Positions 20,179-53,735 of a stretch of 64,000 bases of DNA are shown piece after piece. Position 1 is the stretch's first letter; each line of letters begins with the position of its first letter. This DNA comes from Candidatus Campbellbacteria bacterium GW2011_OD1_34_28. GTDB taxonomy: Bacteria; Patescibacteriota; Minisyncoccia; Phycocordibacterales; UBA12079. A model generated the notes under the pieces. The model searched no databases. It was not told where the DNA came from and worked only from the letters and a program-made list of their open reading frames with translations. Location of the stretch: contig CP011215.1 in the NCBI GenBank assembly GCA_001029775.1, positions 187,187 to 251,186 of the forward strand, in the 5' to 3' direction. The translations under genes were made by a program, and so were the position numbers.

Positions 20179-20240
20179 TTCGTCGACTACAAGAAAAAGC
20201 CCTTCGTCGTATATTGAATACGCCTCAGGGCTTTTTCTTT
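20179..20240 (+). repeat. Conserved hairpin element, copy A: CTTCGTCGAC ... stem GAAAAAGCCC / loop TTCGTCGTATATTGAATACGCCTCA / stem GGGCTTTTT.
   Basis: Same loop motif as at 52391-52433 and 53647-53693, with different but self-complementary stems. Confidence 0.55.
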
Positions 20241-20497
20241 TGTCTCCTCGTATATCATCCAATTTTAAAATTATTTAAAATAAAAATTATAAATTAATTT
20301 TTAATGTTTTAACCTGCCTCTTTTCTGAAAGAAAAGCAACGACACGGCAGGCAGGTTTTCATTTTTCGACTATTTGAGATACACTTTATATTGATACTAA
20401 AAGTATCAATTTTCATACATCATTATCAATCTATTTTAATATTTAAAAAGCTTTATTTAATTCGTACTTTACGAACTTTATAAACTTTATAACTTAT

Positions 20498-21043
20498 ATG
20501 TCAATTATCAAACACAAAGAACAACGCGTTGGTGTTTTTATAGATGCACAAAATCTTTATCACAGCGCAAAAAATCTGTACCACGGAAAAGTAAACTTTC
20601 AACAAATAATGAAAGATGCTGTCGGAGACAGAGCACTGATCCGAGCAATCGCCTATGTGATAACAACAGAATCTGGGGAAGAATCTAGTTTCTTTGAAGC
20701 ATTAGGAAAACTTGGAATTGAAACAAAAACAAAAGATTTGCAAATCTTTTTAGGCGGAGCAAAAAAAGCCGACTGGGATGTTGGACTTGCGATAGATGCT
20801 GTTAAGATGGCGCCAAAATTGGACAGTATTATTTTGGTTTCAGGAGACGGAGATTTTATTCCTCTGGTTGAATATCTTCAAACAAACGAAGGTTGTCAGG
20901 TAGAAGTGGTTTCATTCGGAAGATCTTCTTCTTCAAAACTAATGGAAAAGGCGGACGACTTTATGGATTTGGATAAAGAATTCAAAAAATATCTTATAAT
21001 GCAGAGAAGGCCTGGAAACAAAAAAAGATCAAACAAAAACTAG
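20498..21043 (+). CDS. NYN-domain (LabA/DUF88-like) protein.
   Basis: VGVFIDAQNLYHSAK ... ILVSGDGDF motif pattern of NYN/PIN-like ribonuclease domains. Confidence 0.6.
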   Translation: MSIIKHKEQRVGVFIDAQNLYHSAKNLYHGKVNFQQIMKDAVGDRALIRAIAYVITTESGEESSFFEALGKLGIETKTKDLQIFLGGAKKADWDVGLAIDAVKMAPKLDSIILVSGDGDFIPLVEYLQTNEGCQVEVVSFGRSSSSKLMEKADDFMDLDKEFKKYLIMQRRPGNKKRSNKN

Positions 21044-21045
21044 TT

Positions 21046-21663
21046 ATGAAAAAAGCATTTATTTTTGATTGGACAGGAACACTCAGCGACAATTTTCACT
21101 GCTTTAAAAAAGTGTGTGATTCTATTTTTCAAGAATTTGGCAAAGAAATACTTTCTGACGAAGAAATAAGAATGAGCTTTACCACGCCCTATATGAATTT
21201 TTGGAACAAATATATTCCAAATATATCAAAGACCGAAATGGAACATTTATACGAAAAACATATTCAAAAAGCTGGCGAGCCGAATCTGTTTGACGGGGTA
21301 AAAGAAACAGTTGCTCATCTAAAAGAATTGGGCTTTGAAATGTTTGTCGTCAGCCTTGATCCAAAATCAAAACTGGCCATAGAAACTGAGAGGTCAGGAA
21401 TTTCTCATTTTATGACTGAAATAATTGGAGGGGTAGATCACAAAAAAGAAGATTCTATAAATTACTTGATAGAAAAATATAATTTGGACAGAAACAATAC
21501 TTATTTTATTGGAGATACAACAGGGGATATAGTTTCTGGAGAAATAGCAAATATAAAAACAATCGCAATCACTTGGGGAATCCAACACGAAAAAACCCTC
21601 TCCAAAGCAGGCGCTGATTATATAATCGATGATATAATTGAAATCAAGAATATTATAAATTAA
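21046..21663 (+). CDS. HAD-superfamily hydrolase (phosphatase).
   Basis: Motif I FIFDWTGTL, motif IV GDTTGDI. Confidence 0.7.
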   Translation: MKKAFIFDWTGTLSDNFHCFKKVCDSIFQEFGKEILSDEEIRMSFTTPYMNFWNKYIPNISKTEMEHLYEKHIQKAGEPNLFDGVKETVAHLKELGFEMFVVSLDPKSKLAIETERSGISHFMTEIIGGVDHKKEDSINYLIEKYNLDRNNTYFIGDTTGDIVSGEIANIKTIAITWGIQHEKTLSKAGADYIIDDIIEIKNIIN

Positions 21664-21751
21664 AAAAGTATTTAGTAATAAATGTTTAGGAACTATACCC
21701 TAAACCTGCCTGCCGGCAGGCAGGCCCTATACCCTAAACCCTAATAAAAAT

Positions 21752-22009
21752 ATGCAAACAATAAAAGTTGTAAATATGAAGTGTGGTGGTTGTGAAAAAA
21801 CTGTGACAACCGCTTTAGAAAAAGAAGGTTTCACAAATATTTCTGTAAAAGCACCGGAAGGGATAATCTCTTTTGATGATGGGAATATGGAAAAGGCGGA
21901 AAAAATTTTGAGTAAATTGGGATATCCAAAAGAAGGAACACCAGAAGCGGAAAGTGTTTTGAAAAAAGCAAAATCATATGCTTCGTGTGCAATTGGAAAA
22001 ATGAAATAA
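21752..22009 (+). CDS. copZ: Heavy-metal-associated (HMA) domain metallochaperone, CopZ-like.
   Basis: MKCGGCE metal-binding motif in a ~70 aa ferredoxin-like fold with a C-terminal extension. Confidence 0.7.
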   Translation: MQTIKVVNMKCGGCEKTVTTALEKEGFTNISVKAPEGIISFDDGNMEKAEKILSKLGYPKEGTPEAESVLKKAKSYASCAIGKMK

Positions 22010-22034
22010 AAAAATAAATTTATAAACAACACTT

Positions 22035-22457: not shown

Positions 22458-22546
22458 ATTATTTTCATTTTTTAAAGGAAAAATATTTAATATGCTTACT
22501 CCTATTATTAATTAAAAAAACAATTTTACTAAAATAAGCAAAAATT

Positions 22547-28593: not shown

Positions 28594-28889
28594 ACAAAAA
28601 AACAGCCCTCACGGGCTGTTTTTTTTGTTTATTGAATTTTCATTTACCAACCTGCCTGTCGGCAGACAGGTTTTCAGTTTCTAATAAATAATTATAATAT
28701 TTTAGTTTGAATTACAAAATGTACTGGATTTATTGCTCCGAATTTTTTGCCTAAAAAATCCAAAGTTCGCTTTGCTCGCAAAGACGACGTCTTTGCGAGC
28801 AAAGCGAATCAATCCAAAAAAATATAATTTATATTTTTTCCACCATTACTTTATAGACTTTAAAAACTTTCAACTTTATACTTAATTGT

Positions 28890-35434: not shown

Positions 35435-36373
35435 ATGGACAAAAGTTGGCTCCCGAGTAAAAAATTAGTCCTATCTTTTAGTACCCTAGCAATTTTATTG
35501 TTGGGGAGTGTTGCTGTTTCTGAGTTGTTTAATAAGCAAAATGTTTATTTAGGAGAAAATAATAGTGTAAAGGTAGCAGAACTAAGAGGTAGTTTTTCAG
35601 AAAAAGACACGGATGGGGATGGTTTGATGGATTGGGAAGAGTCTCTTTGGAAAACAGATATAAATAACACCGATACAGACGGAGACGGAACAAATGATGG
35701 CGATGAAATACTACAAAAAAGAAATCCTGTTGTCGCTGGACCAGATGATTTATTGAAAGGAGAAATTTTAAGCGATGATAATTTTTTTAAGTACACTGAT
35801 GAAGAAAATTTGACCGAAACAGATAAATTATCAAGAGACCTTTTGGTGGGTTATTTGAGTATGAAAAAAAATGGTTCTTTTGAAGAAAATAAAACACAAT
35901 TTATTCAGTCTTTGTCACAAGATGTTACAGAAATATCAAAAGAAAAATCGGGCAAATTTTATACATCTACAGATATAAATATTATAGATAATAATAAAAA
36001 ATCTGATATTGAAACTTATAAGAAAAATTTTATAGGTATAATGATGTTTAGTAATGATCCAAGTCAAGATATTTCTATATTTAGAGATGCTTTACAAAAT
36101 GAAAGTAGTAAAGAAATATCAAAACTAGATTCAAGTATTTCTTTATATGAATATATGATGGAAAAACTTTTAGATATAAAAGTTCCTTCTTCTTTGCTAC
36201 AATCGCATTTAATAATAGTTAATTCTTTTGATGATATGATAGAGGGAACAAAAAAAATGAGAAATGTTATGATTGATCCTATTGGAGGTCTCTCAGGAAT
36301 AAATTTAAGAATTGCGTCAGAAGAAGTTTTTTTGGTTGGTTTAAATAAATTAAATGATATTTTAGAAAAATAA
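35435..36373 (+). CDS. Membrane-anchored protein with two dockerin/EF-hand-like Ca-binding repeats (DTDGDGLMDWEE / DTDGDGTNDGDE). First gene of the T4SS-like block.
   Basis: N-terminal TM helix; duplicated DxDxDGxxDxxE motif. Confidence 0.45.
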   Translation: MDKSWLPSKKLVLSFSTLAILLLGSVAVSELFNKQNVYLGENNSVKVAELRGSFSEKDTDGDGLMDWEESLWKTDINNTDTDGDGTNDGDEILQKRNPVVAGPDDLLKGEILSDDNFFKYTDEENLTETDKLSRDLLVGYLSMKKNGSFEENKTQFIQSLSQDVTEISKEKSGKFYTSTDINIIDNNKKSDIETYKKNFIGIMMFSNDPSQDISIFRDALQNESSKEISKLDSSISLYEYMMEKLLDIKVPSSLLQSHLIIVNSFDDMIEGTKKMRNVMIDPIGGLSGINLRIASEEVFLVGLNKLNDILEK

Positions 36374-36374
36374 A

Positions 36375-38612
36375 ATGTTTTCAAATAAATTTAAAAAAAC
36401 AACAGCTCTTTTTTTAACGGTAGTTATTATTTTTGTTTCCAGTTTTTCTTTAAAACCACAAAAAACAGAAGCCATTATTGGTTTTGGAGATACTGTTATT
36501 GAAGTAGGAGCGAATCTTTACGCTAACATGACAAAAATGGTAAAAGAAATAGCACTTGATACAATAGCTTGGGCAATTAAGGATAGAATAATTAGACAAA
36601 TAGTCAACTCAACTGTTACATGGATAAATAGTGGTTTTCAAGGCTCTCCGGCATATATAACAGATTTTGAAGGTTTTTTGACTGATGTAGGAGACGATAT
36701 AACGGGAATAATAATAAACGAAACAGGTTTAAACTTTCTTTGTGATCCATTTGCTTTAGATATTAGATTGGCTTTAGAAAATCAATTTATGGAAGGTGAT
36801 GATCTTGATTGTAAGTTGTCCGATGTCACCGACAATATTGGAGGTTCAATAGAGGATATTTCAAATACAATGGGAGAAAATTGGGATTGGGGTGCTTGGG
36901 TACAGATTACCCAAAACACAAGCAATAACCCTTTTTCTTCTTACATAGATGCAACAGTTAGAATTCAAAATACAATTTTTGAAAAAGAACAACAACAGTC
37001 AACCCAGATACAGTGGGCAGATGGTTATATATCAATTCCTTTTTGTGAAACAAATACGGTTGAAGAAAATGGAACTGTTCATTACGATGAACAGTGTAGA
37101 ATTGAAACACCAGGAAAACTTATTTCAGAATCTTTAAACGAACAACTAAGTTGGGGAGGAAAAGAGTTAATATCTGCCGATGAAATAAACGAAATTGTTT
37201 CAGCTTTGTTTGCACAACTAATTAATCAGGTATTTCAAGAAGGCCTTCGTAGTGTAAACGACGATGGATATATGGATGACATGGTGAATGATGATAGTGT
37301 GTGGGAAGGAAGCACTAGGGAAATAATAGGGCAAATTGAAAGAGATATAAAAGAAGAGCAAGCATATTTGGATGTTAAAAAAATGACACTAGAGTTGTTG
37401 TTGTCTACTAAAGAACTTTTGGAAACAATGAAGGAATTTTGTGCGGATGAAGAACTTAATGGTTGGATTAGTAATAAAATAATAACAAAAATTAATCCTT
37501 TGATTGAAAGGATTCAGGCGGACATAAATGTTTCACAAGGAATGATTGACCGTTTGTATGAAATCATTAATAAATTAAGAGCTCTTGTTGATGGAGATTC
37601 TTCAAATCCAGATCCAGATCCTCAGCCAGATCCAGACCCTCAACCAGACCCTTCTGCAAGTTATTCTTGTGAAAAAGTAATTGCACCTAGCTATACAGAC
37701 GGATTTTTCTCTTTGGCGTCATTTAAAAATGTATTATATGCAGGAGCCTTTGGATATGGTCTTGAAAATCAAAGCATGATGTTTGGTGTGGGAGGAGCTT
37801 TCCAACCTGGAATAAAAAATATAGGAGAAAGTGTTTGTGCAATGGAAGAATTTGATGGTTTTCTTTATGCAAATACAGAAAACAGTGGAAAGGTTTATCG
37901 TTCTCAAGACGGTAAAAATTGGGTCACTGTACACAGTTTGGGCCAACCAACAGGTTGTGCTATGGATGTTCACAATAACAACTTGTTTGTTGTTGGTGCA
38001 AATGCTTTTGCTGGATTAAGAAAGTCTGTTATTTATAGATTTACTGGTAAAGTAGGGTGGCAATCTGTATATAGTGACGATTTGTATATAAGAGATATTG
38101 TTTCTTACAAAGGTAGAATATATGCTTTTGGTATTGATAATAGTGGTCAAGGTTATGTTATAAGTTCTGATAATGGTGTTACGGATTGGAGAAAACAACA
38201 GGTGGACAGTCGTTTTTTTAGAGCAACTGTTGTAGATGATACTCTGTGGATAGGGTCTTCTATGAAATATAGTAAAAATAATAAATCTGGAATTTTCAAA
38301 TATAATGGAAATACCTTTGTAAATGTTTATAATACAAATATTTATGAACACATAACCTATGTTAAGGGTTGGGAAGGTGCTTTGTTTGCAGGAACAACAA
38401 AAGGTTTCAAAGTAAAAATGGATGGAACAAATGCAAAGGGTCCAACACAGCTTTTGGTTTCAGCAGACAATGGAACTTCTTGGAAGACAGCATGTACGGT
38501 TCAAGAAGAGGGTATTTGGGATATTATGGAAAACAACGGAAAATTATATATAGCTACGATGAGTTATAATAATGCTACGGGTGGTTCTGTTTATGAGGTA
38601 AAGAAAAAATAA
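36375..38612 (+). CDS. Large secreted/anchored protein (745 aa) with a PDPDPQPDPDPQPDP linker and a C-terminal beta-propeller-like repeat region.
   Basis: N-terminal hydrophobic anchor, low-complexity PD/PQ linker, and repetitive G/Y/W-rich C-terminal blades. Confidence 0.45.
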   Translation: MFSNKFKKTTALFLTVVIIFVSSFSLKPQKTEAIIGFGDTVIEVGANLYANMTKMVKEIALDTIAWAIKDRIIRQIVNSTVTWINSGFQGSPAYITDFEGFLTDVGDDITGIIINETGLNFLCDPFALDIRLALENQFMEGDDLDCKLSDVTDNIGGSIEDISNTMGENWDWGAWVQITQNTSNNPFSSYIDATVRIQNTIFEKEQQQSTQIQWADGYISIPFCETNTVEENGTVHYDEQCRIETPGKLISESLNEQLSWGGKELISADEINEIVSALFAQLINQVFQEGLRSVNDDGYMDDMVNDDSVWEGSTREIIGQIERDIKEEQAYLDVKKMTLELLLSTKELLETMKEFCADEELNGWISNKIITKINPLIERIQADINVSQGMIDRLYEIINKLRALVDGDSSNPDPDPQPDPDPQPDPSASYSCEKVIAPSYTDGFFSLASFKNVLYAGAFGYGLENQSMMFGVGGAFQPGIKNIGESVCAMEEFDGFLYANTENSGKVYRSQDGKNWVTVHSLGQPTGCAMDVHNNNLFVVGANAFAGLRKSVIYRFTGKVGWQSVYSDDLYIRDIVSYKGRIYAFGIDNSGQGYVISSDNGVTDWRKQQVDSRFFRATVVDDTLWIGSSMKYSKNNKSGIFKYNGNTFVNVYNTNIYEHITYVKGWEGALFAGTTKGFKVKMDGTNAKGPTQLLVSADNGTSWKTACTVQEEGIWDIMENNGKLYIATMSYNNATGGSVYEVKKK

Positions 38613-38615
38613 AAT

Positions 38616-39608
38616 ATGAAAAATATTTATAAATTTATTTTAATATTGGTTGTTGTAGTAGGAGTTTCATTTTATTTTGGAAACTCTCCTGCTGAAAACA
38701 TTTCGGCCGCGAACAATGAACATGCCGGAGATGTTAGTGGTTGTAGTGTTACAGCAACAACACTGACTGGCGCAAAGGAATATGGAGAAGATCAAGGTAG
38801 AACAAATGGATGTAGACCAACATTTTTCTTTGATATGTCTGGAGACGGATATTGTCCAGGAGGAAAATGTTCTGTTGATATAAGTTGTGAAGACGGTGAT
38901 GCCGAGACATACACATTTGATAATCCAGGTGTTCCTCCAGGGGAATGTCCTCCTGGTGCAAATTGGAATGGGGCGGTTGGAAATAGTCCTGGAAGATACC
39001 CTCTCGTTTACTGGGATTTGGAAGGATTTCTTTGGAAATCAAAAGGAAATACATATTGTAAATTGGTTGTCTATTTGCCACAAAAATTTGGAACAGGTGA
39101 ATGTGAGCCAGATTTTCAGGGGAGTCCAGCAAGCCCTGCAGATCCTGCAGAAACTTTAATGGATCTTGTTAATGAATGGAGAGATATTTCTGAAAAAATA
39201 CACAGATCGGGTGATTTAGCAGCAGCTCAGGATGAATATGATGAAATAAAAGCCGAAATGGATGCTATAAAAAAAGAAGCTCTTCAAATTGTACCAGAAG
39301 GAAGTTGTGACTATATTATTTACGGAGACGATCCTGGTTTTCATCACTACAATCCACATTCTTTTGATTCAGCAAAATCAGCAATTGTTTTATGTCCACT
39401 TTCACCAGAACTTGTTAGTTGTACGGGTTTTGTTCCTAATATAAATCCACTAACAGGCAAAATGTGGCCAGATAAAAATAGACAGATATTTATACAAGGA
39501 ACACCAAAAAGTGGTCCTTTGACGATAAATTGTTTGGGCAAAGATGGAGAAACTTATAGTTATAGAATTAATGATGGTAATACATACACAAACGGCGTGT
39601 GTCAGTAA
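38616..39608 (+). CDS. Secreted Cys-rich hypothetical protein.
   Basis: Signal/anchor helix; about 14 Cys spread through the mature part. Confidence 0.4.
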   Translation: MKNIYKFILILVVVVGVSFYFGNSPAENISAANNEHAGDVSGCSVTATTLTGAKEYGEDQGRTNGCRPTFFFDMSGDGYCPGGKCSVDISCEDGDAETYTFDNPGVPPGECPPGANWNGAVGNSPGRYPLVYWDLEGFLWKSKGNTYCKLVVYLPQKFGTGECEPDFQGSPASPADPAETLMDLVNEWRDISEKIHRSGDLAAAQDEYDEIKAEMDAIKKEALQIVPEGSCDYIIYGDDPGFHHYNPHSFDSAKSAIVLCPLSPELVSCTGFVPNINPLTGKMWPDKNRQIFIQGTPKSGPLTINCLGKDGETYSYRINDGNTYTNGVCQ

Positions 39609-39666
39609 AAGATAAAAGTTGCTTTTAAATATCTTTTTAGAAAGATGTTTAAATAAAAAATTATAA

Positions 39667-41691
39667 ATGGCGAAATTGTTAAAATTTAGAAAAATAATAT
39701 CTTTCTTTTTTGGAATGGTTGTTTTGTTCGGAGGTATTTTTTCTCCGGTTGGTTTTGATATTCAAAATGGAGGAAATCTAACAATAGATGTTGCAAGTGC
39801 TGCAAATCAAACCGGTACCAGTGTTTCTTGGGAAGATTTTATTGAAAGTGAAGGATATTCTTGTAATATAGCATCATGGAATTTCACTTTCGGCGGTTGT
39901 ATGGTTTTGGTACTAAAGGATGTATATGCGGTTGTTGCTTTTTTGTTGGTTATATTTGCAAAATTTTTTGATGTTCTTCTAATGTTTTCTATTAGTGATA
40001 AATTTTTAGACCAAGAATTTATTGGACCAGCATGGACGGCATTGAGGGATGCTGCCAATATGTTGTTTATTTTTCTGTTGGTAATTATTTCCATATCAAT
40101 AATACTGGATTATGGAAGTTTCAAATCAAAAGAATTGATAGTAAAAGTAATAATGATTGCAATTGCTATCAATTTTAGCTTGTTTGTTTCAAGGGTGGTC
40201 ATAGATGCGGGAAATATTTTCACGGTTGGTTTTTATGATGCGATAGGTGCAAAAGATATGGAAGATACATATATTGCAGGTATTATTCCAAAAGAAATTT
40301 CTAGTGGACTGATGTCTATGTTTAATCCAGTAGAGATGATGGATCAGGAGGCTTTTCATAAATGGGTGGAAGGTGAGGGAGATAAGACCGCTATTATGAT
40401 TGTTATTTTTTTGGTTGCTATTGCAATAGCTTTTTATACGGCGTATGTGTTTTTTATGGCTGGCTGGACATTTATTGGTAGGGTTATTTATCTTTGGATG
40501 TTGATGGTTCTTTCTCCTCTTGCTTTTATGTCTTATGCTATTCCTGGAATGGGATCGTATTTTACAAAATGGTGGCAAAAGTTATTGGATAAATCTTTTT
40601 GTGTAGTAGTATTTCTTTTTATCCTGTGGTTGTTGTTCTTAATAAATGATAATGGACTTTTTGCCTCAAATAATTTTGTTGAAGGTGATAATATTTTAGG
40701 ACAGATATTGGTAATTCTAATGAAAGCAATGATTGTTTTTGCTTTTATGAGAACAGCATTATCTGAATTAAAGAAAAAATGTGATGACGGTGTTATTGGG
40801 GATAGTATATTAAAAGGTGTGAAAGGAGCTGTTGGTTTGGCTGGTATTGCAACAGGAGGTGCTTTGGTGGGTGCAGGAGCAAAAGCATTGGGCGGTAATT
40901 TGATGAGAGGAACGGTTGGACGAGCTGCACAACGCGGTGCGGAATATATGGAAAAGAAAGGTGGGGGTACATCAACTATGGGTAAATTGGGATTGAAAAC
41001 ATTAAGAAATGTTGGAGATTCAAAATTCGGAATGGCAAAAGAAAGTTTCAAAGCCAGAGAAGATAGTAAAGTAAAAGATCATCATGCTTATGCAAATACT
41101 TTGTCAAAAGAAAAGAATATTACAGCAAACGAATTAGATGCCAAAGGAAAACCTGTAAGAGATGCACAGGGAAATATTAAGAAGACAAATATTAGTGCTC
41201 AGGATCAGTATTATAGAAATATTTCAAAATCAAAAATTTCTAATACCGTTGCAGCAACCGCTGGTGCGGCAACAGTTGCAACAGGAGGTGTTTTGGCACC
41301 TTTAACTGTTCCTCTAGCGGATTATATGAGAACTCGTGCAACCACTGGTGCAAAAGCAGCTGAACAACAAGGAAAGATAAGTAAATTAAATAAAGATAAA
41401 GAAATAGAGAGGGAAAAATTCAAACTTGAAATTGAGAAATTAAAAAATGAAGAACTTAGAGAAGCTGAAATTCATTTGCAAGAAGCAAAAGATGATTTGG
41501 AGAAAGCAAAATTAGCAAAACAACCAGAAAGTGCGCTAAGTATTTATAGGTCTGGTGTTGGAGATGCACAGGTTACTTTGTCAAAAGCTAATTCAGAAAT
41601 AAAAAAGAAAGAAGAAGAACTAAAAGAAAAATTGAAAAAGTATGATGAGGATATTAAGAAAGCGAGAGAGGATATGAAAAAAAATAAATAA
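39667..41691 (+). CDS. Polytopic membrane protein, VirB6/TrbL-like, with a Gly-rich segment and a long C-terminal coiled coil.
   Basis: At least 6 hydrophobic helices followed by GAVGLAGIATGGALVGAGAKALGG and a K/E-rich coiled coil. Assigned to VirB6 by topology and context only. Confidence 0.35.
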   Translation: MAKLLKFRKIISFFFGMVVLFGGIFSPVGFDIQNGGNLTIDVASAANQTGTSVSWEDFIESEGYSCNIASWNFTFGGCMVLVLKDVYAVVAFLLVIFAKFFDVLLMFSISDKFLDQEFIGPAWTALRDAANMLFIFLLVIISISIILDYGSFKSKELIVKVIMIAIAINFSLFVSRVVIDAGNIFTVGFYDAIGAKDMEDTYIAGIIPKEISSGLMSMFNPVEMMDQEAFHKWVEGEGDKTAIMIVIFLVAIAIAFYTAYVFFMAGWTFIGRVIYLWMLMVLSPLAFMSYAIPGMGSYFTKWWQKLLDKSFCVVVFLFILWLLFLINDNGLFASNNFVEGDNILGQILVILMKAMIVFAFMRTALSELKKKCDDGVIGDSILKGVKGAVGLAGIATGGALVGAGAKALGGNLMRGTVGRAAQRGAEYMEKKGGGTSTMGKLGLKTLRNVGDSKFGMAKESFKAREDSKVKDHHAYANTLSKEKNITANELDAKGKPVRDAQGNIKKTNISAQDQYYRNISKSKISNTVAATAGAATVATGGVLAPLTVPLADYMRTRATTGAKAAEQQGKISKLNKDKEIEREKFKLEIEKLKNEELREAEIHLQEAKDDLEKAKLAKQPESALSIYRSGVGDAQVTLSKANSEIKKKEEELKEKLKKYDEDIKKAREDMKKNK

Positions 41692-41701
41692 TTTATAAAC
41701 T

Positions 41702-42349
41702 ATGGAATATACACCAGAACAAATTGAAAATAGACTAAATTCGCTTCCTGCTGATATCAAGCAGGCGATGTCAGAGGTTGATACAACCACAGCTATTTTA
41801 AATGTGGGAAAGAAAAATGGACTTCATGTAGATCAGATGGGAGAGCTTCTCTATTGTGTTGGCCTTGTGATGCTCGGCCTCGAACATTCTCAACGCTTTG
41901 CAGACATTATTATTGAAAAGGTGGGCGTTTCCCCTGAACAAGCAGAAGTGATAACCGCCGATATAAACAACGAGGTTTTCTTAAAATTGAGAGAGTCTAT
42001 TAAAAAAATTCACGAACAGCACTCTTCTCAAAATACAGAAATAGATAATAGGCCTTTGGCAGAGAAAATGAATCCTTTTGAACAAAAACACGAAGGAGAG
42101 GTGTTGGATAAAGACAAAATTTTGGCAGAGATAGAAAACCCTGAAAATATTATAGAAAACAAGGTTTCAACACCTTCTGTAAATATAAACGTTCAAATTC
42201 CTGTGATTGAGCCTCCTATGCCCGCAGAACCTTTTAAAATGAATATTATGGAGAGTAAATTGGGTGGAGTAACAAAATTACCTATGCAAGAGAAAAAGGT
42301 AGAAGAATCAGGAGTAAAGATAGATCCGTATAGAGAACCAATTGAGTAG
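41702..42349 (+). CDS. Hypothetical protein in the T4SS-like block.
   Basis: ORF only. Confidence 0.35.
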   Translation: MEYTPEQIENRLNSLPADIKQAMSEVDTTTAILNVGKKNGLHVDQMGELLYCVGLVMLGLEHSQRFADIIIEKVGVSPEQAEVITADINNEVFLKLRESIKKIHEQHSSQNTEIDNRPLAEKMNPFEQKHEGEVLDKDKILAEIENPENIIENKVSTPSVNINVQIPVIEPPMPAEPFKMNIMESKLGGVTKLPMQEKKVEESGVKIDPYREPIE

Positions 42350-42378
42350 AAAGTCGAAAGTTTGTAAAGTTATAAAGT

Positions 42379-42723
42379 ATGAAAATAGAAAGATTTGAAG
42401 ATATAATATCATGGCAAAAAGCTGAAAAATTAACCCTAGATATTTATAACATTTTTAGAAATATTAATGATTTTGGTTTTAAAAATCAAATACAAAGATC
42501 TTCTGTTTCTATAATGAATAATATTGCCGAAGGGTTTGAAAGAAAGGGAAATAATGAATTAAAGTATTTTTTGTTCGTTGCAAAAGGATCATGTGCTGAA
42601 ACCAGATCAATGTTGCACTTATCATTACAGTTGAAATATTTAAAAGAAGATCAATATAAAAAATTAAACGAATTATCAATAGAAATTTCAAAATTATTAT
42701 CAGGTTTAATCAAAACTTTATAA
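42379..42723 (+). CDS. Four-helix-bundle protein, 23S-rRNA-intervening-sequence / DGR Avd-like family (paralog 1).
   Basis: ~115 aa, motifs IAEGFERKGNNELKYFLFVAKGSCAETRSML typical of the TIGR02436-type bundle. Confidence 0.6.
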   Translation: MKIERFEDIISWQKAEKLTLDIYNIFRNINDFGFKNQIQRSSVSIMNNIAEGFERKGNNELKYFLFVAKGSCAETRSMLHLSLQLKYLKEDQYKKLNELSIEISKLLSGLIKTL

Positions 42724-42755
42724 ACTTTAAACTTTATAAACTTTAAACTAATATC

Positions 42756-43181
42756 GTGCATTTCGAAGTACCACAATTTATAGATATAGAAGACAAAATA
42801 GTTGGACCCCTAACTATCAAGCAGTTTATTTTCGTTGCCGGAGGAGCAGGAATTTGTTTTGCTATCTATTTTTTTCTTAAAAGTCTATTTTTCACTCTTC
42901 TTCTAGGGGCTCCTTTTATAGCTCTTTCTCTTTCTCTTGCTTTTTATAAACCAAGCGGAAGACCTTTTATTTTAGTTTTGGAATCAGCCTTTTGGTTTTT
43001 CTTGAAAAGTAAATTATATATTTGGAAAAAAGAACCAAAGAAAGTTCAGAAAGGAGTAGAAAAAGAACCCGATTTGGTGGCTCAGATGAATGTACCAAAA
43101 TTGTCAGATAGTAAATTATCAGATTTGGGTTGGAGTTTGGATATAAAAGACAAATTGGAAGATAATATGAATAATAATTAA
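42756..43181 (+). CDS. Small two-TM membrane protein, VirB3/PrgI-like.
   Basis: Two adjacent hydrophobic helices in a 141 aa protein, two genes upstream of the VirB4 ATPase. Confidence 0.35.
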   Translation: MHFEVPQFIDIEDKIVGPLTIKQFIFVAGGAGICFAIYFFLKSLFFTLLLGAPFIALSLSLAFYKPSGRPFILVLESAFWFFLKSKLYIWKKEPKKVQKGVEKEPDLVAQMNVPKLSDSKLSDLGWSLDIKDKLEDNMNNN

Positions 43182-43207
43182 TAAAAATTCAAAATTGAAA
43201 TCTCAAA

Positions 43208-43579
43208 ATGCAAAATGAAAAAGAAAAATTTAAAAATGAATTTAAGAAAAGATTGTATACATGGACACTAAGATTAATAAAATTTATTGATAAATTAAAT
43301 AAAGATTCTGTCTGTAATGTAATAGGAAAACAATTATTGAGAAGCGGAACAAGTATTTTATCAAACTATGTTGAAGCGGGATCTGCTAGTTCGAAGAGAG
43401 ATTACATTAATTTTTTTACATATTCTTTAAAATCATCCAATGAATCGAAGGTGTGGTTGTCTTTGTTGAGGGATACAAACAAGGGGGATAAAAAAGAATT
43501 AGAGTGGATGTTATGTGAATTACAAGAAATATCAAACATCATTGCATCTGGTATAATAACAATGAAAGGGAAAAGATAA
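43208..43579 (+). CDS. Four-helix-bundle protein, Avd-like / 23S rRNA IVS family (paralog 2).
   Basis: GKQLLRSGTSILSNYVEAGSASSKRDYINFFTYSLKSSNESKVWL, same family signature as paralog 1. Confidence 0.6.
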   Translation: MQNEKEKFKNEFKKRLYTWTLRLIKFIDKLNKDSVCNVIGKQLLRSGTSILSNYVEAGSASSKRDYINFFTYSLKSSNESKVWLSLLRDTNKGDKKELEWMLCELQEISNIIASGIITMKGKR

Positions 43580-43635
43580 TTTTTATTTTTAAACTGTCAT
43601 TTTTAATTTTGAGATTTTAATTTTGAATTTGAAAC

Positions 43636-44265
43636 ATGGAAAAAACATCAGCAACACAAGGATTTGTTCCTATCAAAGAAATAAGAGATGGTGTAATTGT
43701 TCTTAAAGATAATTCTCTAAGGGCTATTTTGATGGTTTCTTCTTTAAATTTTTCTTTAAAATCCTCAGATGAACAAATAGCAATTATTTATCAATTTCAA
43801 AATTTTTTAAACTCTCTTGATTTTTCTACTCAGATTTATATTCAATCAAGAAAGTTGGATATTAGGCCTTATATCTCAGTTATGGAGGAAAAATACAAAG
43901 CTCAAACAAATGATTTGATGAAAATTCAAACAAGAGAATATATAGAATTTATAAAGAAATTTACCGAGAGTGTAAATATAATGACGAAAAACTTCTTTAT
44001 AATTGTACCTTACACACCTTCTTTTCTAGGAAACTCCTCGAAAGGCCCCCTCGGTCTTGGTGGAGGGAAAAAAAATACACAAATTTTGGAAAACGATTCT
44101 TTTGAAGAGAGTCGTTCACAGTTGGAACAAAGAGCCAATGTCATAGAACAAGGGTTATCAAGGTCTGGTTTAAGGGTTGCCAGATTAGGAACTGAAGAAT
44201 CGGTAGAATTACTTTATAAAATATTTAATCCAGGAGAATCAGAAAAACCAATTCAACTAAATTAA
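43636..44265 (+). CDS. VirB4/TraC/CagE-family N-terminal domain, encoded as a separate ORF that ends 4 nt before the ATPase ORF.
   Basis: 209 aa + 604 aa equals a typical VirB4 length. The N-terminal GFVPIKEIRDGVIVLKDNSLRAIL resembles the VirB4 N-terminal motif. Confidence 0.45.
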   Translation: MEKTSATQGFVPIKEIRDGVIVLKDNSLRAILMVSSLNFSLKSSDEQIAIIYQFQNFLNSLDFSTQIYIQSRKLDIRPYISVMEEKYKAQTNDLMKIQTREYIEFIKKFTESVNIMTKNFFIIVPYTPSFLGNSSKGPLGLGGGKKNTQILENDSFEESRSQLEQRANVIEQGLSRSGLRVARLGTEESVELLYKIFNPGESEKPIQLN

Positions 44266-44269
44266 AAAT

Positions 44270-46084
44270 ATGAGCATTTTTGATAAAATTTTAGGAAAAA
44301 AAGACGAGGGTCCGGGTATCACACCCACATTGCCACAGGAAATTTATGAGACTGGTGTTTTGGAATTGCAAGATATTATTGCTCCTTCTGCTCTAAAGAT
44401 TTCTCCTAACAATATTAACCTCGGTGGTAAAATAATGAAAACATTTTTTGTTATTTCTTATCCAAGATTTTTATCTGACAATTGGTTTTCTTCTGTAATT
44501 AATTTAGATAAAGAATTTGATGTATCTATTTTTATTCATCCGATTGAGACAGAAAAAGTATTGCGACAATTTCAAAAGAAAGTAGCCGAGGTTCAAAGCC
44601 AAATAATGACAAGAGAAGAAAAGGGATTTGTTAGAGACCCGGGTTTAGACGCTGCTTATCAAAATCTCGAAGATTTGCGTGACAAATTGCAACAGGCACA
44701 GGAAAAATTGTTTGATGTCGGTGTTTATATTTCTATTTATGGAAAAGATGATGACGAATTGAACAAACTTGAATCAGAGATTCGTTCTATTTTGGAATCA
44801 AAACTTATCTACATTAGACCATCTCTTTTCCAACAAGAACAAGGTTTTAGAAGTATTTTGCCATTAGGAAATGATCTTTTAAATGTTCACTCAAAGCTTA
44901 ATTCCGCCCCTCTTTCCAGTATTTTTCCTTTCGTTTCTTTTGACCTAACATCTGATAAAGGAATTTTGTATGGAGTAAACAGACACAACTCAAGTTTGAT
45001 AATTTTTGATCGTTTTTCTTTAGCAAACTACAATTCAGTTACTTTTGCAAAATCTGGAGCAGGAAAATCTTATGCAATCAAATTGGAAGTTTTGAGATCT
45101 CTAATGTTTGGTGTAGAGGTTATGGTAATAGACCCTGAAAGAGAATTTGAATATTTGTCCGAGGCAGTAGGGGGAAGATATTTTAATATTTCTTTGTCGT
45201 CCGAACACCATATCAATCCTTTTGATTTACCAGCTCCAAGACCAGACGAATCACCTTCAAATGTTTTGCGATCACATATTGTCAATTTGGTAGGGCTTTT
45301 TAGAATTATGTTGGGAGGGTTATCACCAGAAGAAGATGCAATAGTGGACAGAGCTATTTCGGAAACTTATGCCTTGAGAGATATTACACCCGATTCCGAT
45401 TTTACAAACATAGAACCACCTCTTTTGTCAGACTTTGAACTTGTTTTGGCGGGAATGGAAGGAGCCGATGTTTTGGTTCAAAAAATATCAAAATATACAA
45501 AAGGTACATGGTCTGGATTTTTGAACAAACCAACCAATGTGGATATAAATAGTAAATTTATTGTATTCTCTATTAGAGACATGGAAGATGAGTTGCGACC
45601 GGTGGCAATGTATATTATTACCCACTATATTTGGAATGCGGTTAGAAAAGAATTGAAAAAAAGATTGTTTGTTATCGACGAAGCATGGCAAATGATGAAA
45701 TCAGAAGACGCTGCCTCTTTCTTGTTTAGTATGGCAAAAAGAGGAAGAAAATATTATTTAGGATTGGCAACAATTACCCAAGACATCAACGACTTTCTTC
45801 CTTCTCCGTATGGACTGCCCATTATCACCAACTCTTCTATTCAGGTGTTGTTGAAACAGTCTCCTACAACAATAGACGCTGTTCAAAAAACATTTAACCT
45901 TACAGATGAGGAAAAATATCTTCTTTTGGAAGCGGGTGTAGGGGAGGGAATTTTCTTTGCTGGACTAAAACACGTAGCAATAAAAATAATTGCATCATAT
46001 ACCGAAGATCAGATTATTACATCGGATCCATCACAGGTTTTGGCCATTAAACAAGCAAAAAGAGATCTGGAAGCATCTGAATAA
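44270..46084 (+). CDS. virB4: VirB4/TrbE/TraC-family type IV secretion ATPase (C-terminal ATPase portion).
   Basis: Walker A FAKSGAGKSY, VMVIDPEREF, Walker B LFVIDEAWQMM, and conserved C-terminal motifs. Confidence 0.75.
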   Translation: MSIFDKILGKKDEGPGITPTLPQEIYETGVLELQDIIAPSALKISPNNINLGGKIMKTFFVISYPRFLSDNWFSSVINLDKEFDVSIFIHPIETEKVLRQFQKKVAEVQSQIMTREEKGFVRDPGLDAAYQNLEDLRDKLQQAQEKLFDVGVYISIYGKDDDELNKLESEIRSILESKLIYIRPSLFQQEQGFRSILPLGNDLLNVHSKLNSAPLSSIFPFVSFDLTSDKGILYGVNRHNSSLIIFDRFSLANYNSVTFAKSGAGKSYAIKLEVLRSLMFGVEVMVIDPEREFEYLSEAVGGRYFNISLSSEHHINPFDLPAPRPDESPSNVLRSHIVNLVGLFRIMLGGLSPEEDAIVDRAISETYALRDITPDSDFTNIEPPLLSDFELVLAGMEGADVLVQKISKYTKGTWSGFLNKPTNVDINSKFIVFSIRDMEDELRPVAMYIITHYIWNAVRKELKKRLFVIDEAWQMMKSEDAASFLFSMAKRGRKYYLGLATITQDINDFLPSPYGLPIITNSSIQVLLKQSPTTIDAVQKTFNLTDEEKYLLLEAGVGEGIFFAGLKHVAIKIIASYTEDQIITSDPSQVLAIKQAKRDLEASE

Positions 46085-50896: not shown

Positions 50897-50995
50897 CGTT
50901 AATAACATATTAACTAACTCATATCAAGTTTTATATTCCACAAATAGGAATATAATATGAAGTATCAATTTTTTATTCCTAAATAAATAAAAGCC

Positions 50996-52351
50996 ATGTA
51001 TATAACAACTCTCGAAGATAACAAGAAGATCTGGGAAAAAGTTTTGTCGGACGTTGAAATGAGTGTTTCCAAAGCAAATTTTAATACATGGTTTAAAGAC
51101 ACTGATATTATCAAATATGAAAACGGAACGATCTACTTGAGTGTACCAAACGAGTTTGTTAAAAATTGGCTTTCTGAAAAATATCACAAATTTATCCTCA
51201 AATCTCTTAGAGGAATCCAAGAAAACATTAGAAATGTTGATTACATCGTTGTTAGTGGTGCAAAAAAGAAAGAGTTGTCCATGTTAAAGCAATCTATGTC
51301 CATTAATAACGAACTTCCTCTTAATGATTTTTATATAAACAAAGACGACAATTTGAACCCAAAATATATTTTTGATTCTTTTGTTGTGGGTACCTTCAAT
51401 GAATTGGCTCACGCAGCATCTCAGGCAATTATCAAGAAGCAGGGAATTGTATATAATCCTCTTTTTGTATATGGAAATACCGGTTATGGAAAAACACACC
51501 TTATTCAGGCAATTGGAAACCATTTAAAAACATCCGATGATAAAAAAGTTTTTTATGTAACTTCCGAAAAATTTTCTGTTGATTGTGTTAATTCTATTCA
51601 GCAAAATAAATTGAATCAATTTAAAGAAAAATATAGAAAGTATGATGTCTTGATAATGGATGATATTCAATTTATTTCAAACAAGGAAAGATCTCAAGAA
51701 GAGCTATTTCATTTGTTTAATACTCTTTATGATGGAAACAAACAAATTATTTTTTCTTCAGATAAACATCCAAGTTATATTCCAGGATTGGCAGATAGAT
51801 TAAAATCAAGATTTAGCCAAGGAATGATTGTCGATGTTCAAGCACCGGATGCGGAATCTAGAATGGAGATATTGAGAAACAAGTCAAAAATGAACAATTT
51901 TTATTTGGCAGAAGATATCATCAATTTTATTGCAATATCCGTACAAGGCAATATTAGGGATTTAGAGGGTATTTTAAACTCGGTTATTTGCCAGACTCAG
52001 TTGAAGGGAAGAGACTTGAATATGTCAGAAATCAAGAATTTGTTGAAAAACAATGTAAAGCCAAAGAAAAATGTATCCGTTAAAGAAGTGGTAAAGATTA
52101 TTGCGAGCTTCTACAATCTAGAAGAAACTACTATTTACGAAAAGACAAGAAGAAAAGAAGTGGTAAAACCTCGTCAGGTTATCATGTATATTCTGAGAAA
52201 AGATTTCAATGTTTCTTATCCATCAATTGGAGAAAAATTGGGAGGGCGAGATCACACAACCGTTATTCACTCTTGCAAGAAAATAGAAGATGAGTTGAAA
52301 GATAATAATTTGTTGGAACAGGAGTTAGAACAGATTCGCTCAATGTTTTAG
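50996..52351 (+). CDS. dnaA: Chromosomal replication initiator protein DnaA.
   Basis: Walker A GNTGYGKTHL, Walker B LIMDDIQF, sensor/box VII motifs, C-terminal DNA-binding HTH (DHTTVIHSCKKI). Confidence 0.95.
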   Translation: MYITTLEDNKKIWEKVLSDVEMSVSKANFNTWFKDTDIIKYENGTIYLSVPNEFVKNWLSEKYHKFILKSLRGIQENIRNVDYIVVSGAKKKELSMLKQSMSINNELPLNDFYINKDDNLNPKYIFDSFVVGTFNELAHAASQAIIKKQGIVYNPLFVYGNTGYGKTHLIQAIGNHLKTSDDKKVFYVTSEKFSVDCVNSIQQNKLNQFKEKYRKYDVLIMDDIQFISNKERSQEELFHLFNTLYDGNKQIIFSSDKHPSYIPGLADRLKSRFSQGMIVDVQAPDAESRMEILRNKSKMNNFYLAEDIINFIAISVQGNIRDLEGILNSVICQTQLKGRDLNMSEIKNLLKNNVKPKKNVSVKEVVKIIASFYNLEETTIYEKTRRKEVVKPRQVIMYILRKDFNVSYPSIGEKLGGRDHTTVIHSCKKIEDELKDNNLLEQELEQIRSMF

Positions 52352-52374
52352 AAAGTTTTAAAATTAGCAAATTT

Positions 52375-52470
52375 CTTCGTCAATTTTATAAAAATAATTT
52401 TCGTCGTATCTGAAATACGCCTCAAATTATTTTTACAAAATTTCCTCGAACTTTATCTAATTTAAAAACT
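52375..52470 (+). repeat. Conserved hairpin element, copy B: CTTCGTCAAT ... stem AAAATAATTT / loop TCGTCGTATCTGAAATACGCCTCA / stem AATTATTTT, then TCCTCGAACTTTATCTAATTT.
   Basis: The loop is identical to copies A and C. The enclosing stem differs in sequence but stays complementary. Confidence 0.55.
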
Positions 52471-52502
52471 TTTAAATATTTAAATCTTTAAACTATAAAA
52501 AA

Positions 52503-53600
52503 ATGAAATTGGAATGTTCAAAAGAAAAATTGGTGAGAGCAATCTCAAAGGCCGAAAAAATAACTGGTAAAAATTTATCTTTACCTGTTTTGAGTTGTGT
52601 TTTGTTGGATGCAAACAACGGTAACCTAAAAATTTCTTCTACTAATTTAGATTTGGGAATAGAAATAAATGTTCCTGCTAGAGTAGACGAAGAAGGAATC
52701 ACAGCTGTTTCTGGATCTGTATTAGGCAGCCTTTTGTCGAGCGATTTTAAAAGTGAAAAAATAAAACTGGAAACAAAAAATGAAAATTTAAATGTTTTGT
52801 CAGATAGTTATTCAACAATAATAAAATCACAAAATAGTGAAGATTTTCCGACCATTCCTCGTTTAAAGAAAGACAAGGTGATCAACATCGAAAGTAAAAA
52901 ATTGGTTAAGGGATTAAAATCTGTTTGGTATAGTTCTTCAACATCAAATATCAAACCAGAATTATCTAGTATTTTGATCTGTTCAGAATCAAACACAATT
53001 GTTTTTGTTGCGACCGACTCTTTCAGATTGGCAGAAATGAAAATAGACTTCAATTTAGAGGATTTTGAACAAATATTGATACCTTTCAAAAACATACCTG
53101 AAATTTTGCGAGTATTTGATGATGTGGATGGAGATATAAAAATGTACATAACCGAAAATCAGATTGCTTTTGAATATGAAAACATTTATCTCACATCTCG
53201 TGTGATTGACGGAATTTTCCCAGATTATAAACAACTACTTCCAAAAGAATTCAAAACAGAAATTACTGTCTTAAAAGAAGATCTGGTTAATGTATTAAAA
53301 GTAAGTAACATTTTTTCTGACAAATTTAATAAAGTGAGTTTTAGCATCAGTCCCAAAGATAAAAAGTTTGAGATTAGAGCAGTAAATAGTGATGTAGGAG
53401 AGAATGTAAACAGGGTAGATGCTGTTTTGAAAGGGGATGACATCGAGATAAATTTTAATCAAAAATATATAATGGATTGTTTCCAGTCTATTACCACAGA
53501 CAGTTTGGTTTTAAAATTTAATGGTTTGAATAAACCGATGGTCATCAAGAGTGTGCCAGATACTCAGTTTACTTATCTTGTGATGCCAATGAATAAATAA
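52503..53600 (+). CDS. dnaN: DNA polymerase III beta sliding clamp.
   Basis: Three-domain 365 aa protein directly downstream of dnaA; N-terminal MKLECSKEKLVRAISKAEKITGKN matches the clamp consensus. Confidence 0.9.
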   Translation: MKLECSKEKLVRAISKAEKITGKNLSLPVLSCVLLDANNGNLKISSTNLDLGIEINVPARVDEEGITAVSGSVLGSLLSSDFKSEKIKLETKNENLNVLSDSYSTIIKSQNSEDFPTIPRLKKDKVINIESKKLVKGLKSVWYSSSTSNIKPELSSILICSESNTIVFVATDSFRLAEMKIDFNLEDFEQILIPFKNIPEILRVFDDVDGDIKMYITENQIAFEYENIYLTSRVIDGIFPDYKQLLPKEFKTEITVLKEDLVNVLKVSNIFSDKFNKVSFSISPKDKKFEIRAVNSDVGENVNRVDAVLKGDDIEINFNQKYIMDCFQSITTDSLVLKFNGLNKPMVIKSVPDTQFTYLVMPMNK

Positions 53601-53630
53601 ATTATTTAAATAATCCCAAATTTAGCGTAC

Positions 53631-53735
53631 TTCTTCGTCACAATTCGCAAAATTTTGTTCGTCGTATCTAAAATACGCCTCACAAAATTTTGCTCTTGTT
53701 CCTCGAATTACATCTAAATTTGAAATTATTTAAGA
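53631..53735 (+). repeat. Conserved hairpin element, copy C: CTTCTTCGTCACAA ... stem GCAAAATTTTG / loop TTCGTCGTATCTAAAATACGCCTCA / stem CAAAATTTTGC, then TCCTCGAATTACATCTAAATTT.
   Basis: Read directly; it shares the extended 3' block with copy B. Confidence 0.55.

Follow-up and report, generated by a model that had tools for sequence, protein, structure and literature searches.

A covarying nested hairpin of about 125 nt at gene ends in Patescibacteria and its possible role as a 3'-UTR or intercistronic RNA module

Why should one sequence motif stand directly behind rpsO, dnaA and dnaN in the genome of Candidatus Campbellbacteria bacterium GW2011_OD1_34_28? The stretch in which it does so, hereafter the window, comprises 64,000 nt (GenBank assembly GCA_001029775.1, contig CP011215.1, positions 187,187 to 251,186 of the forward strand), and all positions given below are counted from its first letter. 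An initial annotation, made from the sequence alone, had described a 25-nt loop held in covarying stems and had placed it, as a structured element, beside replication and translation genes; taken as a whole, this interpretation is partly supported. The motif is the apex of an element that, on good evidence, belongs to a conserved, covarying family of nested hairpins of about 125 nt, which is specific to Patescibacteria, is located at gene ends and has hitherto been uncatalogued.

The pattern TTCGTCGTATNNNNAATACGCCTCA is matched without mismatch on the + strand at 20203-20227 (copy A, after rpsO), 52400-52424 (copy B, after dnaA) and 53658-53682 (copy C, after dnaN), and the core TTCGTCGTAT-N4-AATACGCCTCA likewise has three exact + strand occurrences. 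There are no further matches to the pattern in the window at up to 3 mismatches and 100 dinucleotide-preserving shuffles of the window gave 0 core matches, so that the claim of a three-copy motif is borne out, with 3 exact + strand matches against 0 expected, and its coordinates were right to within 1 nt. The flanking stems are, as had been said, complementary and yet unrelated between copies, viz. GAAAAAGCCC/GGGCTTTTTC in A, AAAAATAATTT/AAATTATTTTT in B and GCAAAATTTTG/CAAAATTTTGC in C, and the upstream CTTCGTC box is present in all three (at 20178, 52375 and 53633). A 3' block described as common to B and C is indeed found in both, but the restriction to these two was too narrow, as (T/C)TCCTCG-N-A-NN-ATC is found in A too.

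The supposed 25-nt loop is really a CGUAU/AUACG stem with a 5-nt loop, which sits on an internal loop UCGU/CCUC crossed by one G-C pair. Thus the apex is real, but the outer half of the element had been overlooked; the whole is three times larger and nested, and with extended flanks RNAfold gives a single nested hairpin of 122-130 nt for each copy. Its parts are as follows.

20153-20276, + strand: copy A, whole nested hairpin (RNAfold -40.0 kcal/mol, z = -7.7; cmsearch 128.8 bits, E = 1e-32)
20153-20167 paired with 20262-20276, + strand: P1 of copy A, overlapping the rpsO stop codon TAA at 20156-20158
20169-20178 paired with 20250-20260, + strand: lower helix of copy A, GG-C-GAU-C-UAC
20179-20184 (UUCGUC) opposite 20245-20249 (UCCUC), + strand: outer internal loop of copy A
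20185-20203 paired with 20227-20244, + strand: P2/P3 of copy A
20203-20227, + strand: core of copy A, with internal loop UCGU/CCUC, cross-loop G-C pair, CGUAU/AUACG stem and 5-nt loop AUUGA
52351-52473, + strand: copy B, whole nested hairpin (RNAfold -26.3 kcal/mol, z = -6.7; cmsearch 94 bits)
52375-52382, 52400-52424 and 52442-52448, + strand: boxes of copy B, namely outer box CTTCGTCA, core and 3' box TTCCTCG
53605-53734, + strand: copy C, whole nested hairpin (RNAfold -33.6 kcal/mol, z = -8.3; cmsearch 122.2 bits)
53633-53640, 53658-53682 and 53699-53705, + strand: boxes of copy C, namely outer box CTTCGTCA, core and 3' box TTCCTCG

The cores of B (52400-52424) and C (53658-53682) are identical in anatomy to that of A. 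In the lower part of the rod the CTTCGTYG...(G/T)CCTCG boxes face each other and form a second copy of the UCGU/CCUC internal loop, about 24 nt below the inner one on both strands. Read from the outside inwards, the family layout opens at the upstream stop codon with P1, a locus-specific stem of about 16 bp. Next come a conserved lower helix, in which GGCGAnCUnC pairs with GnAUnUCAUCC, the internal loop 5'-UUCGU / 5'-CCUC, a variable helix P2/P3 of about 20 bp, the same internal loop repeated, and the 5-bp apical stem with its 5-nt loop; in the RNAfold structures the rod has about 45 bp in all, broken by the internal loops. P1 is the least conserved part (mean pairwise identity 0.35). Copy B fills the dnaA-dnaN spacer, its first base being the last base of the dnaA TAG (52349-52351) and its end lying 29 nt before the dnaN ATG (52503), and copy C starts 5 nt past the dnaN TAA (53598-53600).

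How widely is this element distributed? A scan for the exact core, TCGTCGTAT-N5-ATACGCCTC, in one genome per species from 185,579 species yielded 103 loci (identified below by L numbers), of which 79 are labelled Patescibacteria and come from Saccharibacteria, Paceibacteria/Parcubacteria, Kaiser-, Nomura-, Campbell-, Doudna- and Pacebacteria and Minisyncoccia, with GC contents from 32% to 63%. Six further loci have full-length elements scoring 53-122 bits and carry other labels, namely L001 and L061 (Gammaproteobacteria), L093 (Nitrospira), L075 (Flavobacteriaceae) and L043 and L045 ("bacterium"); these contigs are probably mis-binned or mislabelled Patescibacteria. Two of them, L001 and L043, also have genes resembling window genes. 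The remaining 18 loci have only 23-30 nt core matches, mostly within open reading frames (ORFs), against about 17 core matches expected by chance (18 specified bases, 596 Gb). Among 2.9 million viral contigs there were two matches only, both core-only, and with just these two chance matches a phage origin was rejected. The closest named relative of the window, judged by DnaN, is a Campbellbacteria metagenome-assembled genome at 78% identity.

Copies from the Candidate Phyla Radiation (CPR) share one architecture of near-constant length (MAFFT alignment A2). With cmsearch, covariance model R1 found the three copies and nothing else in the window, and over 85 CPR loci it found 105 copies, about 20 of which have a divergent core and lack the exact one. 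In these divergent copies the apical stem covaries (CGUAC/GUACG, UGUGC/GCACA, CGUAG/CUACG, AAUAU/AUAUU) and the loop shows paired swaps, e.g. UCGC/UCUC. A covariance model built from 64 related copies went with strong covariation, which was measured on a MAFFT alignment not fitted to the structure: 81.4% of cells were paired compared to 56.6% in shuffles and at most 45% in slid registers, while double-sided changes numbered 651 compared to 235 in shuffles and were present in 32 of the 38 pairs. Six apical pairs are invariant in this alignment because the loci had been fetched by their exact core. The proposal that conserved unpaired sequence within covarying stems marks a selected structured element is supported.

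No Rfam 15 family matched this element. At gathering thresholds the whole window gave just 3 tRNAs and 18 element-bearing loci (136 kb) gave tRNAs only, and E-value scans (E up to 10) of copies A, B and C and of L050 returned sub-threshold matches of hairpin or terminator type, none of them above 25 bits where the threshold stands at 90 bits. Full-text literature searches, motif strings included, found no description of the element; the sole related mention in the 224-motif paper is the lysM-TM7 motif, and CPR is unmentioned in the papers and preprints consulted, those on genome-language-model discovery of non-coding elements among them.

Around the three window copies the following features are present.

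19760-20158, + strand: rpsO, ribosomal protein S15 (Pfam Ribosomal_S15, E = 1e-30), with its stop codon inside P1 of copy A
20313-20364, + strand: terminator-like hairpin ACCTGCC...GGCAGGCAGGT followed by TTTCATTT, 36 nt after copy A, with arms from the CCTGCCTGCC/GGCAGGCAGG palindrome family
50996-52351, + strand: dnaA (Pfam Bac_DnaA, DnaA_N, Bac_DnaA_C), upstream of copy B, in a rnpA-rpmH / dnaA-dnaN arrangement
52503-53600, + strand: dnaN (Pfam DNA_pol3_beta domains 1-3), between copies B and C
53797-53838, + strand: canonical intrinsic terminator, AAAAAATCCCAG-TTCA-CTGGGATTTTTT with T-run, 63 nt after copy C, found by two terminator scans

The terminator at 53797-53838 places copy C within the transcribed dnaN 3' untranslated region (UTR). 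Canonical terminators on the sense strand, that is, the strand carrying the motif as written here, also lie downstream of copy A and at about ten other loci, including L042 (two copies), L051, L024, L031, L055, L076 and L078.

Usable flanks were available for 94 copies. In 71 of these the element points the same way as its upstream gene and in 16 the opposite way, and 6 copies lie between divergent genes. A co-oriented stop codon is found within 15 nt of the first P1 pair in 51 copies, mostly within 5 nt, and the distance from the element to the following gene varies around a median of roughly 100 nt. Three loci (L010, L020 and L062) have opposite-strand genes within one 8-kb locus, and there each element is oriented with its own gene, which argues for a tie to transcription or translation rather than to the direction of replication; an orientation set by replication is unlikely for the same reason.

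The genes upstream of the element are diverse and mostly abundant housekeeping genes. Among their products are S15, S7 (2), S18, L27, EF-Tu, IF3, EF-P, LepA and NusB, then SSB (2), DnaA, DnaN, PolA, UvrD, RNR, NDK and RpoD (2), and also FtsZ, FtsA, FtsX, AtpE (2), ClpP, pilins (4) and PilC (3). Four of the sites, those behind rpsG, ssb, atpE and pilC, are found again in other classes, where the stems have changed in a compensatory manner. The special tie to replication genes suggested by the initial annotation does not hold, since other genomes have the element after S7, S18, L27, EF-Tu, IF3 and others, and its adjacency to dnaA and dnaN is incidental. A link to the replication origin was rejected as well, given this diversity, the location of the DnaA-box matches outside the elements and the fact that the TCATCCAAA stretch is part of a covarying helix. 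So was a functional link to the NYN-domain gene beside copy A, whose recurrence in L001, L043, L057 and L100 reflects synteny of the rpsO-pnp neighbourhood. In L078 ftsA, ftsZ and trxB each have a copy behind them, and the element therefore also occurs inside operons; other operon-internal sites are S7 with the next gene and dnaA-dnaN.

The stop codons that adjoin the element are TAA in 34 cases, TAG in 16 and TGA in 1, against a background of 239, 143 and 76 (51 genes, window and L001-L102; Fisher p = 0.003). It is possible that this scarcity of TGA arises from highly expressed genes avoiding it, from a TA needed at the element boundary or from a link to RF1.

What might such an element do? 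The reading that we favour, with a rough probability of 0.45, is that it acts as a co-transcribed RNA module of the 3' UTR or intercistronic spacer, whose twin loops are read by a putative conserved factor and whose rod marks or protects the 3' end of the upstream mRNA, a mechanism inferred from structure and context. The element, with its structure, conservation, covariation, sense orientation, anchoring at stop codons and downstream terminators as described, would be transcribed as the start of the 3' UTR of the upstream gene or as the spacer between two cistrons. The rigid rod would present a putative host factor with two identical pyrimidine loops at a spacing of some two helical turns. 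This factor could be a pair of protomers, a protein with tandem domains or, possibly, Rho, the latter because the sense strand is C-rich and G-poor. By its stability the hairpin would serve to mark the upstream message at its 3' end and to shield it there, as a barrier to exonucleases and/or a processing site, and the outcome may be that expression of neighbouring genes is separated and tuned in compact, largely leaderless genomes nearly free of Shine-Dalgarno (SD) sequences.

As regards the latter, an SD-like sequence precedes just 3 of the 48 window genes of at least 120 amino acids. Many window ATGs have a TATAAT-like box 6-12 nt upstream, e.g. those of 18763-19665 (- strand), 26997, 34549, 35435 and 46109. 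The window suggests mRNAs that are leaderless or near-leaderless, with a promoter before nearly every gene. The CCUC loops may resemble the 3' end of 16S rRNA (GUCGUA ... CACCUC), but mimicry of the anti-SD sequence was dropped as an idea in view of these 3 SD-like genes in 48.

A bolder form of the favoured reading, which we regard as doubtful, would make the element a superphylum-wide post-transcriptional punctuation mark, in which a putative dedicated protein reads the twin UUCGU/CCUC loops at stop-anchored hairpins and sets 3' ends, stability or termination-coupled events for a regulon of abundant housekeeping genes. If this were true, it would be a bacterial counterpart of the system of the histone mRNA stem-loop and its stem-loop-binding protein SLBP.

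Three sets of observations weigh against a co-transcribed module read on the sense strand. The first is that downstream terminators are not enriched overall, being found in 30 of the 94 copies on the sense strand and in 22 of the 94 on the other. The second is repeat-like behaviour. Between copies of one genome the inner module, which runs from the outer box by way of P2/P3 as far as the core, has 81-94% identity and P1 shows no relationship (the two copies of L100, L073/L051, L031/L046, L059/L062:7123), and the dnaA-dnaN copy, which is present with compensatory changes in the window and in L107 (DnaN 78% identical), is absent from L108-L110 (70-63% identity), copies being thus turned over between related genomes. 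The third is the behaviour of the opposite strand. This antisense strand folds better in nearly every copy, by about 10 kcal/mol (A -54.9 vs -40.0, B -38.3 vs -26.3, C -50.2 vs about -33.5 kcal/mol), and in the consensus pairs sense A.C mismatches, which are G.U on the antisense strand, outnumber sense G.U by 226 to 93. Moreover, the positions that are not Watson-Crick paired are pyrimidine-pyrimidine on the sense strand, and on the antisense strand GAGG/ACGA gives tandem G.A pairs, a G-C pair and a further G.A, tandem G.A being more typical of structured RNA. In 16 oppositely oriented copies the A.C excess has the same sign (43 vs 10). About 15-20% of high-scoring copies are in the opposite orientation (L070, L088:4170, L093, L011), and these would be unreadable by a sense-specific RNA-binding factor.

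The second of these sets bears on the strongest rival, although we consider it unlikely: that the element is an interspersed DNA palindrome of the kind of repetitive extragenic palindromic (REP) sequences or miniature inverted-repeat transposable elements (MITEs), its boxes being sites for an enzyme acting on single-strand hairpins, e.g. a Y1/HUH transposase of the REP-associated (RAYT) type, and that the inner module spreads or homogenises among gene-end hairpins, with any RNA effects secondary. The element does behave as an interspersed repeat family, but it is part of no catalogued repeat, and it was membership of a known repeat that the initial annotation had named as fatal to its own proposal. 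It is multi-copy, the window and the loci having about one every 20-30 kb, and the same stem subtype recurs at non-orthologous sites, window A after rpsO being 87.5% identical to the L062 copy after rpsG and window C after dnaN 86% identical over 93 nt to the L059 copy, which follows tuf and belongs to another genome. The gain and loss that separate relatives such as L107 and L108-L110 extend to the post-dnaN copy, in whose place L107 has a plain terminator. The better folding of one strand is what single-strand-specific substrates display, CGTC at the foot of the apical stem, the 5-nt loop and the CC..A tail recall the CGTC-tagged REPs (PMC3733652), and the adjoining stops are TAA or TAG in 50 of 51 cases. 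Set against this are a core and an architecture that are near-invariant over very deep CPR lineages, where REP families are specific to a species or genus, and orthologous sites that are kept between classes. The three window copies have no stem sequence in common, orientation tracks genes with no uniform direction per locus, and no RAYT or other transposase gene was found among the approximately 60 annotated neighbouring or window genes. As to the homogeneity of inner modules, gene conversion between conserved boxes would explain it without mobility, and both this and a mobile inner module inserted into gene-end hairpins fit the data.

Where the window has copy B, between dnaA and dnaN, another relative, L109, whose DnaN is 67% identical, has a 23S_rRNA_IVP / bAvd-type gene (2113-2466). 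There is also a second, unrelated repeat family in the window, a perfect GC-rich 22-nt palindrome, CCTGCCTGCC/GGCAGGCAGG, for which 12 matches were counted with up to 1 mismatch allowed, 0.2 being expected. Its positions are given here.

10133-10154, 12288-12309, 21704-21725 and 28650-28671: 22-nt palindrome
20313-20356 and 11086-11135: 22-nt palindrome, split
12459 and 13297: single arms of the palindrome

In other genomes this palindrome is inserted within copies of the nested hairpin (L062:7123-7285, L044, L029), and the window stretch 20313-20359 and L059:3437-3483 share 98% identity. The family has the appearance of a small, mobile, REP-like palindrome belonging to AT-rich Paceibacteria.

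The third set of observations bears on another rival, that the purine-rich antisense strand is the functional RNA, either as a polar barrier or terminator to antisense or convergent transcription running into the 3' end of the gene that it shields or as the 5' domain of a cis-antisense RNA, the tandem G.A loops in both cases being putative protein-binding sites; we judge this improbable. To the stronger folding of that strand in almost all copies may be added a wobble bias that is widespread (72 copies lean to an A.C excess and 15 the other way) and includes, at A3 columns 37/210, a conserved U.G interchanging with U-A and C-G. The loops 5'-GAGG/5'-ACGA, with tandem G.A, G-C, G.A and a bulged A, have classic features of protein recognition, and stop-codon abutment and co-orientation with genes fit this model as well as the sense model. 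Against this model, that strand has no conserved promoter at a fixed distance, its predicted promoters are at chance level, and several copies lie 0-30 nt from the next co-directional gene, which leaves no room for an antisense promoter outside coding sequence. No U-tract follows the hairpin on that strand, and in P3 alone the wobble bias is reversed (29 G.U vs 14 A.C). The A.C excess, furthermore, has another possible explanation in composition. The sense strand contains 3449 C and 2268 G. In each of the 105 copies C outnumbers G, on average by 11, and a G-poor, C-rich sense strand would by itself favour A.C over G.U. Such a compositional constraint partially reconciles the strand paradox with the sense-strand module. 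A separate observation concerns two places, L088:4170-4483 and L004:3317-3620, in which co-directional genes enclose two copies set back to back, one in each orientation; a single transcript would contain both the pyrimidine-loop and the purine-loop version, the conserved loops of which are mutually complementary.

The same composition raises a more specific version of the favoured module, which we think more improbable still, namely that the element is a structured Rho-entry site or a hairpin at a Rho-dependent 3' end, displaying YC dinucleotides, with termination by Rho downstream and exonucleases trimming back to it. Stem-loops at Rho-dependent 3' ends with C>G bubbles and without U-tracts have been described (PMC13613805), and in favour of this version the C excess arises even though the base pairs supply as much G as C, nearly every unpaired residue is C or U, with the conserved ones making UC and CC steps, there is no U-tract, and the element begins where translation ends. 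A universally conserved factor would also explain sequence conservation across phyla. On the other hand, Rho loading sites are normally unstructured and most residues here are paired, the copies in opposite orientation would be G-rich in the mRNA, and those inside operons (ftsA-ftsZ, S7 with its downstream gene) would have to permit read-through.

That the copies are ordinary intrinsic terminators sharing a loop sequence by chance is refuted as a sufficient explanation and hardly deserves further weight, even though P3 of copy A (GAAAAAGCCC...GGGCUUUUUCUUUU) resembles an A-tract/stem/U-tract terminator and the sub-threshold Rfam matches are to terminator-bearing sRNAs and leaders, for 0 copies are expected by chance, the 125-nt architecture is conserved across phyla, and the window genome has its own A-tract/stem/U-tract terminators at most gene ends, two of them downstream of A and C. 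As the initial annotation had maintained, the element is no plain terminator: position-specific composition over 92 copies revealed neither a T-run after P1 nor an A-run before it, and thus not the combination of GC-rich hairpin and U-tract. The family consensus lacks a conserved U-tract after P3 or P1 and has a single semi-conserved U after P3, with a U-run there only in AT-rich subtypes such as copy A, and a terminator scan called none in any of the three window copies.

Some other features of the window may be mentioned. Sites resembling parS, TTTCACGTGAAAC and GTTCCACGTGTA at about 11051-11065 and 11159-11170, and three DnaA-box matches (11222, 11360, 11372) are located near the minimum of cumulative GC skew at about 8-12 kb, and the classical rnpA-rpmH / dnaA-dnaN junction at 50.6-51 kb (dnaA at 50996), with two DnaA-box matches, is 40 kb off. 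With the skew minimum and the dnaA junction 40 kb apart the position of the replication origin is ambiguous, for which reason the window alone cannot decide how element orientation relates to replication. Between 35435 and 42349 there are large + strand genes without a Pfam match, GC skew is unusually high (up to +0.30) in 35435-46084, and this whole region is probably a type IV secretion or conjugation-like cluster, with these annotated genes.

42379-42723 and 43208-43579: 23S_rRNA_IVP-family genes, interleaved with the two below
42756-43181: PrgI-like gene
44270-46084: TraG/VirB4-like gene

Patescibacteria make up a large share of bacterial diversity, and cultivated, genetically tractable strains are only recent; to our knowledge almost nothing is known about gene regulation in these organisms. 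The core is near-invariant from Saccharibacteria to Paceibacteria and recurs many times per genome directly behind genes of the ribosomal, replication, division and pilus classes, which implies that the reader is conserved and the function a basic one. The element escapes current annotation and Rfam, and a covariance model that finds copies at E values down to 1e-32 would improve the annotation of CPR metagenome bins. The six off-label bins that contain it suggest that it could also serve as a lineage marker.

How does the element compare with known systems? Box C/D sRNAs and TIGR arrays, the stem-loop units of which were described by Faure et al. in 2025 (PMC12045711), have a terminal stem around the same order of box, variable segment, box, loop, box, variable segment and box; TIGR is common in CPR, and the antisense strand of the element holds GAUGA and tandem G.A. 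A relationship was nevertheless rejected, leaving a topological analogy only, as the variable segments of the element are mutually paired and covary and so are no free guides, neither strand has a CUGA partner for an RUGAUGA/CUGA pair or the 3-nt bulge of a K-turn, and the copies are dispersed behind housekeeping genes rather than arrayed beside a Tas gene.

Integron attC sites also combine a primary sequence that is little conserved outside short boxes with a conserved palindromic structure of 57-141 nt directly 3' of an ORF, often over the stop codon, and in them too the complement of the coding strand has the more stable fold, this being the recombinogenic strand. The resemblance ends with these traits. 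The element is without the R'' (RYYYAAC) and R' (GTTRRRY) boxes, its ends are unconserved and its conserved boxes are internal or apical rather than terminal, and its neighbours are rpsO, dnaA, dnaN and other core genes, scattered and not in a cassette array, with no integrase seen among those annotated.

MITEs such as ERIC, Correia/NEMIS, RUP and BOX-type elements are imperfect palindromes of 100-150 bp in transcribed intergenic regions and form long RNA hairpins, those of Correia elements, which duplicate a TA target, being RNase III substrates. MITEs are near-identical over their full length, have terminal inverted repeats and are genus-wide, whereas the element is superphylum-wide, its terminal P1 is least conserved and its internal loops most, and its copies are dissimilar at the ends, with unrelated P1 despite inner modules that are 81-94% identical. 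A TA duplication is indistinguishable here from the palindrome itself.

Closer in proposed function are the hairpins of the malE-malF REP, the puf operon and the RNase III sites of phage T7, which follow the more abundantly needed cistron and shield the upstream mRNA from 3' exonucleases or set processing sites; the T7 sites, in addition, have conserved internal loops in differing stems. These are single loci or belong to one phage, without a sequence-specific loop repeated twice and without spread over a superphylum, and for the element such a function is inferred. An RNase III processing site is cleaved within double-stranded RNA of 20 bp or more, and the rod here has about 45 bp with internal loops in between.

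REPs, including those in bacterial interspersed mosaic elements (BIMEs), REPIN doublets and the CGTC-tagged superfamily of Di Nocera et al. (2013; PMC3733652), are interspersed palindromes, mostly downstream of ORFs and between co-directional or convergent genes, and they are often co-transcribed and thought to stabilise or attenuate transcripts as RNA hairpins. In CGTC-tagged REPs the palindrome carries at one end, where the stem has its foot, an unpaired CGTC, TGTC or CCTC tag, together with loops of 4-5 nt and a CCA tail, and the core of the element reads CGTC-GTAT-N5-ATAC-GCCTCA, with CGTC at the foot of the apical stem (TTCGTCGTAT) and CCTC opposite, the tag being partly paired and inside a larger helix. 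In REPs the stem measures at least 8-9 bp and keeps its sequence among the copies of one genome, and families are specific to a species or genus. The element, by contrast, has an apical stem of 5 bp and long stems that share no sequence between A, B and C and yet remain paired, it presents its motif twice, nested and in fixed geometry, and it keeps a near-invariant core across a whole superphylum.

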